Of a DNA stretch of 64,000 bases, positions 21,790-29,846 are shown piece by piece (within the stretch, counting starts at the first letter, position 1; each line of letters starts with the position of its first letter). The position numbers and the translations under genes were made by a program. The notes beneath the pieces are model-generated. The model did not search any database. It was not told the origin of the DNA and saw only the letters and a list, made by a program, of their open reading frames with translations. The stretch spans positions 1-64,000 of the forward strand of contig JBKAGE010000040.1 of assembly GCA_046290225.1 (NCBI GenBank), in the 5' to 3' direction. Source of the stretch: Bradymonadia bacterium. GTDB taxonomy: Bacteria > Myxococcota_A > Bradymonadia > UBA7976 > UBA1532.

Positions 21790-23142
21790 ATGATGCGCTG
21801 CCTTCTGATCATCCTGTGTATGTTGCCATGCGCCTGCGGCGCCGCCCCTCGAGGCGACACACCGATGCCATGGCGATACACAGTACGCGTCGACAATGAG
21901 CACAACCGAATGCACGTACGCGCCTGCCTGCCCGGTGCAAAGGGCGCGCTGCTCCCTGGCGTAGAGGCAGGGTACGATCTCGTGCGCCCGCGACGGGCGA
22001 GGCCCATGCAGCTCGACCAGGGTGTGTGTGTGCGATACCAGCTCGACCTGGAAGCCCTCACCGCAGCCTCTGAGCCCTCGGGGCGCAATGCCGCCCTCGC
22101 CCCAGACCGGCTGCTCTGGCCCGGGCTCTGGCTCTGGCGCCCTGAAGAGGAGGCCCGACCACCTGAAGGCTCGACGGTGACATTCGACTTGCCTCCTGGC
22201 ACGTCGATCTCCACCGCCTGGCCTGCTGCAGGCGACGACACATTCCGCCTGCAGTCTTCAGCCCTGAGCTTTCGCAGCCGCATGGCGCTGGGCCCCTTGA
22301 AGCGCCGGATGAAGCTCGACGTTGCCGGAGGTACCATCGACGCGGTGTTCCTCGGTGGCGCCCCTACGGGACCCTTGGACGCGTGGCGAGACTGGATCAC
22401 CCGCGCGGCGCGGGGCACCGCGGCGCTGTACGGCGATCTGCCAGCACCTCATGTTCAGCTGCTGGTGGTGCTCGACGAAGGCTCGACGGTGCACTTCGGC
22501 ATGACCCAGAGAGGCGGAGGGCCCGGCATCGTGATGTTCGTGGGCCGCCATGTCCGCCCGTCGACGCTGAAGCGAGACTGGACCCTCACCCACGAGCTCT
22601 TTCACCTGGGTATGCCCCAAATCGCCCAGAACGACCTCTGGCTCTCCGAGGGGGTGACCACCTACAGCACGTTCGTCGCCATGGCCAGAGCGGGCACGCT
22701 CGACGCCGAGTCCGCCTGGGCCGAGCTCGCCGACGGCTTTCGCCGAGGGCAGCGGCAGGCTCGTGGGCTCAGCTTGCAGCATGAGGGCGAGCGTCTCCGG
22801 CGCACGGGCCGATATGCCCGGGTGTACTGGGGCGGCGCACTGTGGGCGCTGCGGGCCGATCTGGTGCTGAGGGCAAAGGGCAGCAGCCTGCCTCACCAGC
22901 TCATCAAGTGGCGTCAGCACCAACGACAGGACGATCGAGTGTGGTCTGCCCGCGCCCTCCTCGACACCAGCGCCCACTCAGCGGCGCTGCAGAGGCTGGT
23001 GCTTGAGCACGTCGACGCCTCGACTCAGCCAGGATCTGCAGGTCTGCTCGAGACTTTGGGTGTAGACGTAAACGATGCCGGAGAAGTGACGCTCACCCCT
23101 GCCTCAGGGGCGAAGATGCGTCGGGACATCATCCCAGAATGA
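21790..23142 (+). CDS. HEXXH metallopeptidase (M61/M1-like), probable lipoprotein
   Basis: THELFHLG followed by WLSEGVTTY; later YWGGALW; signal peptide with Cys. Confidence 0.8.
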   Translation: MMRCLLIILCMLPCACGAAPRGDTPMPWRYTVRVDNEHNRMHVRACLPGAKGALLPGVEAGYDLVRPRRARPMQLDQGVCVRYQLDLEALTAASEPSGRNAALAPDRLLWPGLWLWRPEEEARPPEGSTVTFDLPPGTSISTAWPAAGDDTFRLQSSALSFRSRMALGPLKRRMKLDVAGGTIDAVFLGGAPTGPLDAWRDWITRAARGTAALYGDLPAPHVQLLVVLDEGSTVHFGMTQRGGGPGIVMFVGRHVRPSTLKRDWTLTHELFHLGMPQIAQNDLWLSEGVTTYSTFVAMARAGTLDAESAWAELADGFRRGQRQARGLSLQHEGERLRRTGRYARVYWGGALWALRADLVLRAKGSSLPHQLIKWRQHQRQDDRVWSARALLDTSAHSAALQRLVLEHVDASTQPGSAGLLETLGVDVNDAGEVTLTPASGAKMRRDIIPE

Positions 23143-23845
23143 GGCCCAACTGGCTGGCCTCCTCAAGCACGGCGGTGACCTGCTCGAGGGGCTGCCCGCT
23201 GATTTGAGCCGCCGCTTCGGCTGAGAGACCCTCGTGTACCACCTTGAGGGCGAAGAGCAGCGGATCTCGCCCCCGGTGCCAGTGGGCCACACGACGGGGC
23301 AAAGACTGGAACGCCAGGACCAGGGTCTCGTCAGGCTCTGGCGACTCGGGCCGCTCGCCTGCCTGAAGCGCGCCGGCGAGGCTGGCGACGTCGTACGGGA
23401 ACGACAAGAGAGCCAGCGTGGGGTTGATGATGGGCCCGTCGAGGGTGTCGGGGTCCGGCAGAGGCGTGCCGTCGATGCTCACCTCGTAGAGCGCCCACTC
23501 GAACTCTGCCAGAGCCACGTGGGCCGGGGTCAGCCCCAAGCGGTCCTCGGCGCTCAGTGTGCTCACCAGAGCAGGCAGATGGACAGCGGCCTCGGGCAAT
23601 GTGGGATCTTTGGGTGGGTGCGCCAAGTAGTACAGCTCGAAGAGCTCGGACCAGCCATCCTCGCCCAACCAGGTGGCGAGCAAGGGAAACTCTGCCGAGA
23701 GCGCGGTGTGCACGTGCCGCCGCACGAAGCGTCGATAGATGGCCAGCCGAGCAGGGTGCACGCCGAGCAGCTCAGCCGCTTCGTCCACCGAGCGCTGCCC
23801 TCGGAGCACGTCGTGCATCACAGATTGGATCGATGACAGGCTCAT
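23129..23845 (-). CDS. DUF2063 (HvfC/BufC-like) MNIO partner protein
   Basis: RLAIYRRFVRRHVHTALSAEFP...LGEDGW...YYLAHPP; LAEFEWALYEV; NPTLALLSFPYDV; ATGA overlap with DUF692 gene. Confidence 0.88.
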   Translation of the reverse strand: MSLSSIQSVMHDVLRGQRSVDEAAELLGVHPARLAIYRRFVRRHVHTALSAEFPLLATWLGEDGWSELFELYYLAHPPKDPTLPEAAVHLPALVSTLSAEDRLGLTPAHVALAEFEWALYEVSIDGTPLPDPDTLDGPIINPTLALLSFPYDVASLAGALQAGERPESPEPDETLVLAFQSLPRRVAHWHRGRDPLLFALKVVHEGLSAEAAAQISGQPLEQVTAVLEEASQLGLILG

Positions 23846-24759
23846 CGGGCCTCCATCATCGGCAGAGCCTGACTGGTGGCCGCCTCACCCACAGCGCGGA
23901 TCTGACCCAGCTCTTCGAGCAAACGCTCGACGCCGGGGATCTCGGTGTCCCATTCGAGCAAGGTGGTCACAGGGCCGGTCTTCGACAGCACGTGTGCATA
24001 GAGCGCGAAGACCTCCTGCACGATGGGCTCCCCGTGGGTGTCGATGATGACGTCGCCGAGATCAGAATGTCCGGCCATGTGAATCTGCACCACCCGCTCC
24101 AGGGGCAGCGCGTCGATGAAGGCGTACGGATCCTGATTGTGGTTCCGGGCGTTGACGTAGACGTTGTTCACGTCGAGCAACAGCCCGCAGTCCGCCCGCT
24201 CGAGCATCTCGGCGATGAAGGCCCCTTCAGTGAGCTCGCTGGCGCCGTACTCGATGTAATACGAGGGGTTCTCCAGCAGAAAAGGGATCTCTCGACCCAG
24301 CGCCTCGGAGGCGGGCAGTGCCACCTCGCGCTTCACCTGCTCGATGCGCGTCACCACGTGATCGAGGGCCTCTCGGGTGAGAGGCACCGGGAGCAGCTCG
24401 TGATACTCCACGCCAAAGGCAGAGCTGAAACACAGGTGATCTGAGAACCAGTGTGCGCCGGAGCGCTCGACGAGGGCCCGGAGACGGCGCAGATAGTCCG
24501 TACTCAGGGGGCTCTCGCTGCCGATGCTCAGCGCAGTGCCATGGAGCACCAGGGGGTGGGCCCGGGCGCGCTCCAGAATCAGAGCCGGCTCGCCGCCGGG
24601 GGCCATGAAGTTCTCCGAGAGCAGCTCGAAGAAGCCCACCTCGTGGGCCAGGGGGGTGAGCCCCCCTCGGTCCGCACCGAAGAAATCCTGCCAGTGCTCT
24701 CTACGCAACCCGACCCCATAACCGAGATCGGGTACCTCGAACCGAGGGGATGTATACAT
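23842..24759 (-). CDS. DUF692 multinuclear non-heme iron oxidative enzyme (MNIO; HvfB/BufB/MbnB family)
   Basis: GVGLRREH, ELLSENF, LHGTALSIG, SDHLCF, LLENPSYY, LLDVNNVYVN, IHMAGH, IDTHG, LLEWD. Confidence 0.95.
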   Translation of the reverse strand: MYTSPRFEVPDLGYGVGLRREHWQDFFGADRGGLTPLAHEVGFFELLSENFMAPGGEPALILERARAHPLVLHGTALSIGSESPLSTDYLRRLRALVERSGAHWFSDHLCFSSAFGVEYHELLPVPLTREALDHVVTRIEQVKREVALPASEALGREIPFLLENPSYYIEYGASELTEGAFIAEMLERADCGLLLDVNNVYVNARNHNQDPYAFIDALPLERVVQIHMAGHSDLGDVIIDTHGEPIVQEVFALYAHVLSKTGPVTTLLEWDTEIPGVERLLEELGQIRAVGEAATSQALPMMEAR

Positions 24760-24768
24760 GCTCTACTC

Positions 24769-25164
24769 TCAGCTCTTGTCGCCGCTGCAGCCCTTCTCAC
24801 CACTGCAGCTCTTCTCACCAGAGGCCTTCTTGTGGCCAGAGCAGCCCTTTTCACCGCTGCAGCTCTTCTCACCGGCCGCTTCTTTGTGACCGCTGCAGCC
24901 CTTTTCGCCGCTGCAGCTCTTCTCGCCCGTGGCGGCCTTCTCGCCGTTGCAGCCCTTCTCACCGCTGCAACTCTTCTCACCCTTGGCCATGTCTTTGTGG
25001 CCCGAGCAGCCTTTGTCACCGCTGCAGCCCTTCTCGGCCTGCATCTGATTCTCCGCCTGGGGCGCAGCACCACCACAGGCGGTGAGACCACCGAGGGCGA
25101 GACCGCCGAGGGCGAGGCTCATGGTGACGGTACCGATCGACAGCTTACGGCTCTGAGTGCTCAT
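24769..25164 (-). CDS. MNIO RiPP precursor: lipoprotein signal plus ten (E/D)K(G/S)C(S/N)G repeats (131 aa)
   Basis: GGAGG SD before ATG 25164; hydrophobic signal ending LTAC; Cys/Lys/Gly repeats; ends 9 bp before DUF692 gene. Confidence 0.88.
   Translation of the reverse strand: MSTQSRKLSIGTVTMSLALGGLALGGLTACGGAAPQAENQMQAEKGCSGDKGCSGHKDMAKGEKSCSGEKGCNGEKAATGEKSCSGEKGCSGHKEAAGEKSCSGEKGCSGHKKASGEKSCSGEKGCSGDKS
24772..25040 (-). repeat. Coding about 54-bp tandem repeat (5 units, GEKSCSGEKGCSGHKxAx)
   Basis: Recurrent ccgctgcagc(t/c)cttctc units on the + strand. Confidence 0.9.
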
Positions 25165-25265
25165 ATGAAATGCCTCCAACATTAGATGTGTGTATTTGTA
25201 GACTGATCGACTGTCCGACTCGCCAATCAGTTGAAGCAAGAGCTTCATCAGGCTTCGCAGGGGTT

Positions 25266-25337: not shown

Positions 25338-28300
25338 TTAGAAGCAGCCGAGCGTGCCCGAAACCGAGAACAGCGTCGATGGGTCGGGCGGGCTCGACGT
25401 CCAGACCAGGACGAAGCGCTCACCGTCCCAGCTGACCGCCGTGTGACGGATGTCTCCGGCGGCTGCGCCCGCTGCGATGGGCGCCGTCAGGGGGCTGCCG
25501 TCTCGAGCGAAGCCCTGCACCGTGGGGGCGTAGCGGCCCCCACCGAAATCTTCTGCTGAAGCCAGCACCAACATGCTCTGATCCAGCGCCCAGGCCGCCG
25601 AGATTTGCTCCAAGCCCCAGCTGAACGACGAGCGTGTCAGCAACACGTCTTCATTGAGACGCTCACCGCGTGTGTCCACCAGGGTCAGATAGACCAGGTA
25701 GGCGCCGGCCTCCCGATTGGCGTCGGCCCAGACGATGGCGAAGGCCTCGCCAGTCCAGAAGATGTCGATCACCGACGACGGGAAGAAGCTGTCGGTGAGC
25801 GCGATGTCGTCGATGAGGCGCTCCCCACTGGGATCGAGCAGCGTGAAGAACACCTCCAGGGTCTGGCGACGGCTGTCCTGCCATGCCACACCATACGCCT
25901 GCTCGTTGAAGGCCATCTTGGGCCCTGTCGATCTGCCGAAGCTGTCGGTCACCTGCTGGGCCCCTTCGAACTCACCACCAAAGTCGGTGTTGCCATAGAA
26001 GAGGTGACTGCCGACCTCGGGATCAGACTGGCTCCAGACCGCCCCTACCTGGCCATGCCAGCCCAAGTCGGCCCCCTGGCTGTCGAAGACGCGGCCGATG
26101 ACGCTCTGATCGTTCACCGGCTGACCCCCGCGATCCACCTGATGCAGATACACCTGCCAGCCACGGACCAGAGCGTCGTGGGCAATGGCGAAGCCCTGCT
26201 CGGCCCAGACGATGGCCGGCGCAGCCACGGTGAAGAAGCCTTGGGAGATCACCACCTCTTCGGTGACGGGGCGCCCATCTCGGTCGAGGCCCATATAGCG
26301 CACCTCGCTGCCCTCCTGGTTCGGGTCGAGGGCCAACCAGGCCAGGCCGTGTATCTCGTCGCCCCACGCCAGCCGCGGAGATGTGTCGTAGTCGGCGTTC
26401 CGCGTCAGCTGGAAGCGCTCGCCCAGCTGGGGCCCGGCGTCTTCGTCGGTGTTGCCGTCGCAATCTTCGTCCACCCCGTCACAGAGCAGATCGGCGCGTG
26501 CTGGATCACCGGGGGTGCAGCTGTCGACGATCTGACCCCCGCGGCACTCCAGCACGCCGAAGCGCCCGCACTGCCCCACGCCACAGCGTGTACGCAGGCC
26601 TTGGTAGTCTTCGTCCACTTGACCATCGCAGTCGTCGTCCACGCCATTACACGTGACGTCGTTGGGGGCAGGCTCGCCATCTCGGCAGGTGTTCACCTCC
26701 TGGCCATTCTGGCAGACCACCGCGCCCTCATTGGCGCACGCGCCCTGACCACAGCCCACCAGTTGTGCACGGTAGTCTTCGTCGGCGGCGCCATCACAGT
26801 CGTCGTCGATCCCATCACAGGTGCGATCGGCTGCGCTCGGCTCACCAGGGGCGCAAGAATTCACCAGCGCGCCGTCTTGACAGACGATGCGGCCCACCGC
26901 GGCGCAGGCCCCCACACCACATTGCACCACCTCGGGGACGAAGCCCTCGTCGATGTTGCCATCACAATCATCATCCACCCCATCACAGTCGTCGTCGGGC
27001 TGAGGCTGGCCTGGCGTGCAGCTGTCCTGCCGGCTGCCGTTGACGCAGATACGCTGCCCCACAGATTCACACTGGCCGACGCCACACTGCGTGCCCACAG
27101 CGGTGTAGGCCTCGTCGATGGCGCCATCGCAATCGTCATCCAGGCCATCACAGCTCTCGTCGTCACCGACGGGGGCCCCTGGCGTGCAGTCCTCCGTTTC
27201 CTGGCCATCGACACAGCGCAACGCCCCTGTGGCCGCGCACACGCCCACACCACACCGCAGCTCACGGGGGCGATACCGCTCGTCTACCTGGCCATCACAG
27301 TCGCTGTCGCGACCATCACACAGGGCATCGTCCTCGACGGGTTCACCGGCTGTACAGGTATCGCGGACCTCACCGTTGACGCACACCTCGGCGCCAGCGG
27401 CAGCGCACACGCCCACACCACAGGTGGTCCGAGCACCCACGAAGTCTTCATCGACGCGGCCGTCACAGTCATCGTCCACCCCATCACAGGTGGCATCGTC
27501 AGGGGCTGGCTCGTCCGCCCGGCACGTGTCGATGACCTCACCGGCGCGACATACAGTGATACCTGTGGCGGCGCAGGCTCCATCTCCGCAGGCCACCTGC
27601 CGGCTCACGTAGCCTTCGTCGACGAGTCCATCACAATCCGCGTCGACCCCATCACACAGGCGGTCGGGCCCCTCTGGTGCGCCAGGATCGCACCGCTCGA
27701 CCAGCTGCCCACCGTCACAGAGGCGCAGACCCGTAGCGGCGCAGACACCCAGCCCGCAGTTGATCTCGATCTCGGCCACATCTTCGTCGGCGCGGCCGTC
27801 GCAATCTTCGTCCAGCCCGTCACAGCGATCGTCAGATGGGGCCGGCCGGCCAGGCGTACACAGCTCTCGCTCGACACCGGCGACACAGGTCGTCACCCCT
27901 CGAGCGACGCAGATCCCCTCACCGCAGGTCACCGCTCGACGCACGTAGCCCTCGTCCACGAGGCCATCGCAGTCATCGTCTACACCATCACAATTCGTGT
28001 CGGCGTCAGGCGCCCCAGGCGTACAGCCATCGACGAGGCGCCCGCCCACGCACACGGCTTGCCCTTCTGCGGCACACGCTCCGGTGCCACACGCGGTGAC
28101 CGCCGGGCGGTGATCTTCGTCGGCGGCGCCATCACAATCTTCGTCCACCCCATCGCAGCGGGCGTCGATGGCGAGGGGCTCTCCGGCGACGCAGTTGTCG
28201 ACGGTCTGGCCATTGCGGCAGAACAGCACCCCTTGTGCACGGCACATGCCCACCCCACAGATGGTGGCCGTGATCTCGAAGTCCTCGTCGACGCGGCCAT

Positions 28301-29564
28301 CACAGTCGTCATCGATGTTGTCGCAGGTGACGTCGTTCTCGATCGGATCCACAGGCGAGCAGGTATCGGAGATCTCTCCGTCGACACATACAGTGCGGCC
28401 GCCGGCGGCACATGCGCCGACGCCACAGTCCACAGCGCGACCGATGAAGCCCTCGTCGGCGGCGCCGTCGCAGTCGTCATCGATGTTGTCGCAGTCGGTG
28501 TCGGGCCGTGGATCGGCCGGCCGGGCCGAGCACGTCAGCGCCGTCAGATCCGCCGGGTCGCAGGCATAGCGACCTGTGACGGCGCAGGCCCCCACGCCGA
28601 TGTCGCACGGCGTGTCGAGCAGCGCTCGGAAGTCTTCGTCCACGAGGCCATCACAGTCATTGTCCGCCCCGTCGCCACACAGCTCGGGCTCCGGCGTGCG
28701 TTGCTCGGCGTCGCACATCGTGCCCCGGCCGCTCTCGTCGCACACCACCCGGCCCGAGCCGGCGCAGCCGCCGAGCCCTTCGATGCACGCGGTGCCCAGA
28801 TCGGGGTAGTCCTCGTCGGTACGACCGTCGCAGTCGTCGTCGATGCCGTTGCACAGCTCCGGCAAGGGATCCATCGGGGCCCCTTCGCACACCACCTGAC
28901 CGCCCTCATCGCACTGGAACACGCCGCCGACGGCGCAGGCGCCCTCACCAACGGTGCAACGCTCGCCCACCTGTAAACCCTCATCGATCTGCCCATCGCA
29001 GTCGTCGTCGGTGCCGTTGCAGGTCTCATCCACCCCTTCGAGAGGGGGCGCTTCACACCGCAGCGTGTCGCCGCCATCGCCACAGACCACCAGCCCTTGG
29101 GCCCGACAGGCGCCACTGGTGACCTCACAGGCTGCGCCGAGCAGCAAGCCCTCGCCGCTGTCGGTCTGGTAGAGCACCTGAGGGTCTGCCTCGTCGACCT
29201 GCCCGTCACAGTCGTCGTCGAGGGCGTTCCCGCAGCGCTCTATCGGTCCAGGATCCACAGTGGGCCGGCAGATGATGATCTCGTCTTCACAGACCTGCAC
29301 CCCTGACTGTCCGCACACGCCCTCTGCAGGTGATCCGTCGGGCGCCAGCGGATCATCACAGGGATCTCCGGCCCCCTGACATGGGGTGCCCACAGCAGAT
29401 CCGTCGGTGGAGATCACACAGCTCCCGGCGCTGCAGATCTGGCCAGCGCTGCATTCGTCATTCGAACTGCAGCTCGCGGCGTCGCTGTCCTCCTCGGGGG
29501 TGCATCCCCACAGAGGGCCCAAGACGAGTGCAAGCGACATCACGGCGGTGAGATTGAGGTGCAT
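25338..29564 (-). CDS. Large lipoprotein with about 17 MopE-type (putative metal-binding) repeats and a C-terminal beta-rich domain
   Basis: Lipobox LWGC; about 17 x C(D/N)GxDxDCDGxxDE, each followed by CGxGxC; GGGAGG before ATG 29564. Confidence 0.88.
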   Translation of the reverse strand: MHLNLTAVMSLALVLGPLWGCTPEEDSDAASCSSNDECSAGQICSAGSCVISTDGSAVGTPCQGAGDPCDDPLAPDGSPAEGVCGQSGVQVCEDEIIICRPTVDPGPIERCGNALDDDCDGQVDEADPQVLYQTDSGEGLLLGAACEVTSGACRAQGLVVCGDGGDTLRCEAPPLEGVDETCNGTDDDCDGQIDEGLQVGERCTVGEGACAVGGVFQCDEGGQVVCEGAPMDPLPELCNGIDDDCDGRTDEDYPDLGTACIEGLGGCAGSGRVVCDESGRGTMCDAEQRTPEPELCGDGADNDCDGLVDEDFRALLDTPCDIGVGACAVTGRYACDPADLTALTCSARPADPRPDTDCDNIDDDCDGAADEGFIGRAVDCGVGACAAGGRTVCVDGEISDTCSPVDPIENDVTCDNIDDDCDGRVDEDFEITATICGVGMCRAQGVLFCRNGQTVDNCVAGEPLAIDARCDGVDEDCDGAADEDHRPAVTACGTGACAAEGQAVCVGGRLVDGCTPGAPDADTNCDGVDDDCDGLVDEGYVRRAVTCGEGICVARGVTTCVAGVERELCTPGRPAPSDDRCDGLDEDCDGRADEDVAEIEINCGLGVCAATGLRLCDGGQLVERCDPGAPEGPDRLCDGVDADCDGLVDEGYVSRQVACGDGACAATGITVCRAGEVIDTCRADEPAPDDATCDGVDDDCDGRVDEDFVGARTTCGVGVCAAAGAEVCVNGEVRDTCTAGEPVEDDALCDGRDSDCDGQVDERYRPRELRCGVGVCAATGALRCVDGQETEDCTPGAPVGDDESCDGLDDDCDGAIDEAYTAVGTQCGVGQCESVGQRICVNGSRQDSCTPGQPQPDDDCDGVDDDCDGNIDEGFVPEVVQCGVGACAAVGRIVCQDGALVNSCAPGEPSAADRTCDGIDDDCDGAADEDYRAQLVGCGQGACANEGAVVCQNGQEVNTCRDGEPAPNDVTCNGVDDDCDGQVDEDYQGLRTRCGVGQCGRFGVLECRGGQIVDSCTPGDPARADLLCDGVDEDCDGNTDEDAGPQLGERFQLTRNADYDTSPRLAWGDEIHGLAWLALDPNQEGSEVRYMGLDRDGRPVTEEVVISQGFFTVAAPAIVWAEQGFAIAHDALVRGWQVYLHQVDRGGQPVNDQSVIGRVFDSQGADLGWHGQVGAVWSQSDPEVGSHLFYGNTDFGGEFEGAQQVTDSFGRSTGPKMAFNEQAYGVAWQDSRRQTLEVFFTLLDPSGERLIDDIALTDSFFPSSVIDIFWTGEAFAIVWADANREAGAYLVYLTLVDTRGERLNEDVLLTRSSFSWGLEQISAAWALDQSMLVLASAEDFGGGRYAPTVQGFARDGSPLTAPIAAGAAAGDIRHTAVSWDGERFVLVWTSSPPDPSTLFSVSGTLGCF

Positions 29565-29846
29565 CAACTTCCTCCCCAGAAGGTTGTTCACCTGTTCAGG
29601 CGACAGTGAGGGGGAAACCTATACAGAAAACATCGAGTGAATATTTTCGGAGTTGGGCCAAAGCCCCAGTACATCAGGGCCGACGCATGATCAGGCACAG
29701 GGCCACTGGCCGGGGTTCAGCGCGCCCGTCACGGCTGCCGCCAGGGTTGCTCGAGGGGCTCTGGCCATGATACTCAGCGACGCCCGACTTTCCGCCTGTT
29801 CGGAGCCCCCAGTGATGCGAGCTGGGGGGTGTTTTGGAGAAGCCAG

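Follow-up and report, generated by a model that had tools for sequence, protein, structure and literature searches.

A probable lipid-anchored MNIO precursor peptide with Cys-Ser hexamer repeats in a Bradymonadia bacterium

In the window (the whole stretch of DNA analysed here, 64,000 nt of contig JBKAGE010000040.1 from a Bradymonadia bacterium), we identified a gene for a precursor peptide that is probably converted into a lipid-anchored, ring-modified peptide binding copper in the cell envelope; the lipidation of the precursor, taken by itself, is predicted with high confidence. What speaks for the whole chain of events is the three-gene order of the cassette, the rate at which shuffled sequences reproduce the lipobox, the lipobox throughout the clade of related MNIO enzymes, the lipoprotein pathway genes of the host, the precedent of lipo-NedABC, and a metagenomic precursor named L141. 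The features are listed in Table 1.

Table 1. Coordinates of the precursor gene, its parts and the two downstream genes in the window
Feature	Position	Strand	Evidence
DUF2063 partner protein, 238 aa, 4-nt overlap with the MNIO stop	23129..23845	-	PF09836, 53.7 bits (cut-off 27.2)
MNIO (DUF692) maturase, 305 aa, start 9 nt past the precursor stop	23842..24759	-	PF05114, 307 bits
Precursor gene for 131 aa, made up of a lipoprotein signal, a spacer and ten Cys repeats	24769..25164	-	translation; orthologues
Core, ten [ED]K[SG]C[SN]G hexamers	24781..25035	-	sequence; tandem periods
Lipobox Leu27-Thr28-Ala29|Cys30, where diacylglyceryl transfer and SPase II cleavage are predicted	25075..25086	-	conservation in aligned precursors
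Signal peptide, residues 1-29, basic N-region and Gly/Leu h-region	25078..25164	-	hydropathy; clade conservation
GGAGG ribosome-binding site, 8 nt 5′ of the precursor ATG	25173..25177	-	sequence; orthologue starts at the matching Met

The first 35 codons of the 131-aa reading frame (25060-25164, minus strand) read MSTQSRKLSIGTVTMSLALGGLALGGLTACGGAAP. MSTQSRK, a hydrophobic Gly/Leu stretch, LTA|CGG, a short linker and Cys repeats had been picked out in an earlier note on this DNA, and all of them are present in the frame. The basic R6-K7 is followed by 22 uncharged residues (8-29) with a peak seven-residue hydropathy of 2.0, and the lipobox, LTA|C30GG, matches at L27-T28-A29|C30 the consensus L-[AST]-[GA]-C quoted in PMC3222651. 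A spacer of 16 residues separates C30 from C47. The ten core Cys form five hexamer pairs, with a Cys spacing of 6 and then 12-13, and the core DNA has tandem periods of 18 bp and 54 bp. The residue after the core Cys is Ser in nine of ten cases and Asn in one. These Ser residues are specified by both AGY (7) and TCN (2) codons, which suggests that Ser is under selection at this position and not merely the outcome of repeat copying.

Upstream start codons (products of 136-185 aa) were rejected, since the GGAGG site and the orthologue starts indicate 25164; a Tat signal was rejected for the absence of a twin Arg. The GC content at third codon positions is 0.77 in the precursor gene, 0.81 in the two downstream genes and 0.62 in an overlapping plus-strand ORF. 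Matches of the precursor to collagen, DUF7640 and adhesin models were taken as low-complexity, the one to DUF7640 being over its cut-off (40.7 vs 28.1). Its AlphaFold2 model is uninformative (pLDDT 48.5, pTM 0.17); in the ESM Atlas, the nearest clusters (< 0.9) are unnamed and commonest in Myxococcota, and a TM score above 0.5 was not reached by any structure. We found no sigma-70-like promoter for the cassette, and a single terminator-like match, at chance level, within the MNIO gene.

As a lipoprotein test we used a PROSITE-type rule together with shuffles and conservation. When residues 2-45 of the precursor were shuffled 20,000 times, 1.7% of the shuffles passed the rule and 0.19% also yielded a canonical box, which bears out the canonical SPase II lipobox of the earlier note. 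A crude census of the genome gave 412 rule-positive ORFs among 7,861 candidates, with LTA|CGG as the joint commonest box (6/412, the window ORF possibly among the six); LTA|CGG is also the box of the Pal lipoproteins in the relatives G013 and G021. A profile search of the same genome returned Lgt, LspA and Lnt, twice each, and LolA, all over their cut-offs: the genome encodes a complete lipoprotein pathway. By its 20 MYXO-CTERM matches, of which 14 control genomes have none, the host resembles Myxococcota.

Among 27 other genomes in the same family, 15 contain a match to the window MNIO, and an orthologous precursor lies upstream of the enzyme gene in 14 of these 15 loci, the last one being at a contig end; a search at the level of the order brought no further matches. 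For a wider comparison, 89 MNIO loci were collected: the family search supplied 18, a scan of species genomes 13, and a 401-genome sample of the phylum the best 58 of its 102 non-family matches. Their precursors were picked with a score that made no use of the lipobox, and seven loci had no credible precursor. A quick IQ-TREE phylogeny places the window enzyme in a clade of 31 loci (SH-aLRT 93), where all 28 recoverable precursors, the window's included, carry a lipobox. Two of the three loci without a recoverable precursor are at contig ends. At the third, L047 (G242:C385), the genes before the clade MNIO look by eye like those of a sigma factor and an anti-sigma factor, a hint that other members of the clade may be under stress control.

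The 28 precursors are spread over seven families plus a record without assignment and have 16 different triplets at positions -3 to -1; Gly occupies position -1 in 21 of them and Ala in the other 7, while position +2 has Gly in 26 and Ala in 2 (n=28, kin not being independent). Triplets that vary while keeping to the rule are what selection for lipidation predicts. Of the 82 precursors picked in total, the rule accepts 42 and a relaxed rule 4, whereas 31 are SPase I-like and 5 Tat-like; as 36 of the 82 have no lipobox with the same picker and rule, the rule discriminates, and lipidated MNIO precursors are, by this rule-based prediction, common in the phylum. Lipobox conservation among homologues, by which the earlier note had proposed to check its lipoprotein reading, is thus clade-wide and, with the pathway genes of the host, supports that reading.

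The precursor, MNIO and DUF2063 genes follow each other in this order and are tightly spaced. The two NCBIfam models nearest to the MNIO, BufB (293 bits, cut-off 310, E 1.7e-87) and HvfB (238 bits, cut-off 360, E 1.4e-70), both score below cut-off, and the enzyme is far nearer to them than to MbnB, ChrH (only 45 bits) or ApyH. It aligns to structure 3BWW (E 3e-39) and retains His73, His108, Glu163, Asp196, Asn199, His227, Asp240, His242 and Glu269, putative iron ligands. In a check for an RRE-type domain, the HvfC model matched residues 21-186 of the partner (64.9 bits, cut-off 142, E 9.5e-18). We saw no gene for DoxX, for a sigma factor or for copper functions in the cassette.

A lipidated precursor could still have a core that is not a 5-thiooxazole copper sponge: a different Cys product, partial modification, binding of other soft metals or a simple thiol buffer. 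The Cys-Ser/Asn context and the six-residue spacing, unlike EGKCG, would fit such an outcome, as would an enzyme below both curated cut-offs, a precursor for which the Pfam/NCBIfam search gave no HvfA or BufA model match, and the absence of a regulator or copper gene from the cassette. Moreover, FonBC is selective for the residue following Cys, accepting among the reported double variants only Gly or Ala (PMC13097082), against the Ser and Asn of the window precursor, and this too counts against 5-thiooxazole formation. We nevertheless consider this alternative rather unlikely. An MNIO near BufB/HvfB with a DUF2063 partner is the pairing reported to install 5-thiooxazole, the product of all MNIO-PME1 systems characterised so far according to PMC13097082, and the rings of HvfA have been reassigned as 5-thiooxazoles (10.64898/2026.06.05.730506). 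In the clade relatives, Gly follows 134 of 146 core Cys, with a literal EGKCGG in L006, L012 and L016. Finally L141, a metagenome precursor encoded before an MNIO, combines EGKCGEGKCG with DKSCSG repeats in a single chain and thereby ties the Cys-Ser hexamer to the oxazolin type; it matches the HvfA model at E 8e-9, below the cut-off.

Two further genes flank the cassette. At 173 nt upstream of the precursor, on the same strand, lies a gene (25338-29591, minus strand) for a protein of 1,417 aa with a lipobox-like start and 13 stretches of PF11617 (MopE-type, putatively metal-binding), the C-terminal part of which was not found in the other fetched MNIO loci. On the other side, a convergent gene (21790-23142, plus strand) encodes an M61-like zinc peptidase with a HELFH motif and likewise a lipobox-like start. 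Comparison of neighbourhoods across the fetched loci led us to reject both as core parts of the cassette. The peptidase gene abuts the cassette, and peptidase release has been suggested for one DAG-RiPP cluster (PMC13056109); lipidation might then be a transit step only, after which a protease would free the modified core as a soluble or shed peptide. This appears quite improbable: the peptidase is on the opposite strand, it sits beside the cassette in just three clade relatives (L003, L004, L006) and one weak match outside the clade (L085), in loci with short flanks, and the spacer shows little conservation (30% identity) and nothing that looks like a cleavage motif.

If the core is modified and Cys30 lipidated, as we propose, the enzyme must leave one Cys untouched. 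The lipobox of the clade relatives reads C-G-G/S and their core mostly S-C-G-G/A, and FonBC tolerated Ala or Thr before the Cys and most residues further upstream (PMC13097082), so that the local sequence alone does not obviously protect Cys30. The signal peptide may contribute. Over the 20 residues before the lipobox Cys, the precursors share 49% identity and the Pal lipoproteins of the same 11 genomes 34% (52 cross-genus pairs), and shuffled sequences give the same 34% as Pal; identity is 60% in the Pal domain and 56% in the MNIO, so that Pal itself is no less conserved than the enzyme. The precursor signal exceeds that of Pal in 45 of the 52 pairs, which are non-independent and involve a single control protein. 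This conservation hints that the clade signal peptide doubles as a leader recognised by the enzyme, and it agrees with the suggestion, made with preliminary data for bufferins, that the partner masks the signal peptide (PMC12452194). We tentatively envisage, as a possibility short of an even chance, that the signal is the RiPP leader: the DUF2063 partner would grip K-L-S-x-G...L-A-L-G-G-L, delay export and keep the lipobox Cys away from the MNIO, and the window enzyme would in addition have shifted to Cys-Ser hexamers. If true, the dual role of the leader would allow one to test directly how a single Cys is set aside for lipid and the others for rings.

The same core is also found behind other signals. 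The Cys-Ser hexamer is common to all ten top direct homologues of the precursor, yet not one of these (0/10) passes the lipobox rule; likewise, a metagenome scan with nine hexamer queries yielded 21 loci, 12 of which have an MNIO directly downstream, and none of these 12 precursors is rule-positive, two or three of them being without a full N-terminus. Lipidation is therefore not needed for the core. One further relative, P0034, has the signal motif of the clade and yet ends in A-Y-A and lacks the lipobox Cys, in what amounts to a naturally occurring change to a signal of the SPase I type. Together, these cases imply that signal type and core are interchangeable modules, and the same core with lipoprotein and non-lipoprotein signals makes a clean pair for asking how the enzyme spares the lipobox Cys and outruns export. 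Cleavage of the window precursor by SPase I, giving a soluble periplasmic peptide with Cys30 as a degenerate first repeat, is nonetheless very improbable: C30-G-G does resemble the S-C-G-G of the clade core, several Ala/Gly/Ser SPase I-like sites lie around residues 29-34 (with possible cleavage after residues 31-34) and P0034 ends as described, but in the alignment of the 28 precursors C30 is invariant, as is just one other column, although the repeats vary from 2 to 10, it always closes the uncharged stretch after Gly or Ala whereas a charged or His residue stands at most three positions upstream of 115 of the 146 core Cys, and the same boxes are found in the family's Pal lipoproteins.

The chemical steps, location and metal that we infer for the lipid-anchored peptide from the genes, the lipobox and its conservation would be as follows. 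The cytoplasmic MNIO and its DUF2063 partner would bind the precursor, probably via the conserved signal region, and oxidise the core Cys to 5-thiooxazoles, with a loss of 4 Da each and up to 40 Da in all, by analogy with FonA, HvfA and NedA; Cys30 would be spared, as shown for NedA and DybA. After Sec export, Lgt would attach diacylglycerol to Cys30, LspA would cut at Ala29|Cys30 and Lnt would acylate the freed amine, reactions expected from the genes present. The product of 102 residues, with a mass of 9,983 Da for the chain without lipid and with Gly at +2 and Gln at +7, would travel via Lol to the outer membrane under the E. coli and M. xanthus sorting rules (+2 neither Asp nor Lys, +7 not Ala; PMC3222651, from other species). 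There, by analogy only, the flexible chain might bind several Cu ions and buffer copper stress.

Other MNIO loci were seen in the same genome. A second cassette (G000:C77, about 93386-93850; L018:2323-2787, minus strand), also present in G013 (L017:2316-2693), has a different lipobox precursor: AGG|C, an Asp run with Asp at +2, and many AGCP repeats, without any NCBIfam match. Asp at +2 suggests retention in the inner membrane, and this cassette gave no match to the DUF2063 partner of the window. A third MNIO (G000:C82, 163958-164431, minus strand) is preceded by what looks by eye like a bufferin-1 precursor with a lipobox-like GVA|C. Lipoprotein precursors thus seem to go with three of the six MNIO loci of the genome. 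Another MNIO is followed, two genes further downstream, by a gene (G000:C79, 258921-260096, minus strand) whose product, 391 aa with C-terminal SSCG repeats, is a possible protein-sized MNIO substrate. Elsewhere, the precursors of L065, L070, L080, L086 and L095 begin with a twin-arginine-like MNRRxF signal; the corresponding five enzymes group together in a single clade (SH-aLRT 96).

Lipidated MNIO products have been described before. Chen et al. (PNAS 2026, PMC13056109) define DAG-RiPPs, with SPase II examples among chryseobasins, bufferins and oxazolins, and report that lipo-NedABC of Neisseria dentiae was isolated triacylated, 12 Da lighter over three EGKCG motifs and with the lipobox Cys spared. 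About 16% of Buf2 bufferins are predicted lipoproteins, next to hundreds of unclassified small precursors (PMC12452194). The earlier note, which set its lipoprotein against soluble HvfA and bufferin products, leaves out these published lipidated subsets, and the novelty it implied for a doubly modified membrane sponge falls away with NedA (PMC13056109). Its membrane-tethered metal sponge with a spared lipobox Cys is, given the NedA precedent, probably sound. The concept of a lipid-anchored MNIO copper peptide has thus already been demonstrated, and the locus is a further example; particular to it are a signal peptide more conserved than that of the control lipoprotein Pal and a Cys-Ser repeat of six residues for which none of the curated precursor models gives a match. 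The main text of PMC12452194, as far as covered here, does not mention Myxococcota or Tat, nor do the passages of PMC13097082 covered here mention KSC, lipo- or Myxococc- terms. A search by topic, rather than by the motif itself, found no paper devoted to the Cys-Ser hexamer family, which supplementary tables could list. The general idea being published, the gain is incremental: the range of lipid-anchored MNIO peptides now takes in an entire clade of myxobacteria-like organisms, with precursors unnamed by curated models.

As to classification, the precursor has the sequence-level features of a DAG-RiPP: 131 aa (range 50-160) beside an MNIO, a rule-based lipobox Cys, and Lgt, LspA and Lnt in the host. 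An MNIO close to, if below the cut-offs of, BufB/HvfB and a DUF2063 partner over its Pfam cut-off would also fit the captophorins (MNIO-PME1). The precursor lacks EGKCG and matches neither NF050137 nor NF050188 at E up to 1, as the oxazolin/Buf_EGKCG class would require, and its clade relatives match NF050137 below cut-off only; it would resemble the oxazolin type in its working, while the motif models do not file it as one. Searches of Pfam and NCBIfam gave neither the DUF2282 nor the six-Cys BufA2 domain of bufferins.

Amongst known systems, NedABC has in common with the window cassette the SPase II signal, repeated Cys motifs and an MNIO with a partner, and membrane copper sequestration has been proposed for it (PMC13056109). 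It differs in having three EGKCG motifs against ten [ED]K[SG]C[SN]G hexamers in a myxobacteria-like host, and the lipidation and modification demonstrated for NedA are predicted for the window precursor. HvfABC (Haemophilus influenzae) and FonABC (fontiphorin), Lys-Cys captophorins, share the precursor-MNIO-DUF2063 order and paired low-complexity repeats of Glu, Lys, Gly and Cys (PMC13097082). Their repeat is the five-residue EGKCG, HvfA has an ordinary secretion signal and the DoxX-like HvfX is present, in contrast to Lys at -2, Ser after Cys, a lipobox and a cassette without a DoxX gene in the window. Buf1 and Buf2 provide, in BufB, the closest model for the MNIO; bufferins have four- or six-Cys domains, whereas the window precursor is without a DUF2282/BufA2 match. 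In DybA/DybH, the lipobox Cys of DybA is likewise spared by the MNIO and then lipidated (PMC13056109), but the enzyme is of the ChrH type, acts without a partner protein, and the product is a CPxCGxG macrocycle.
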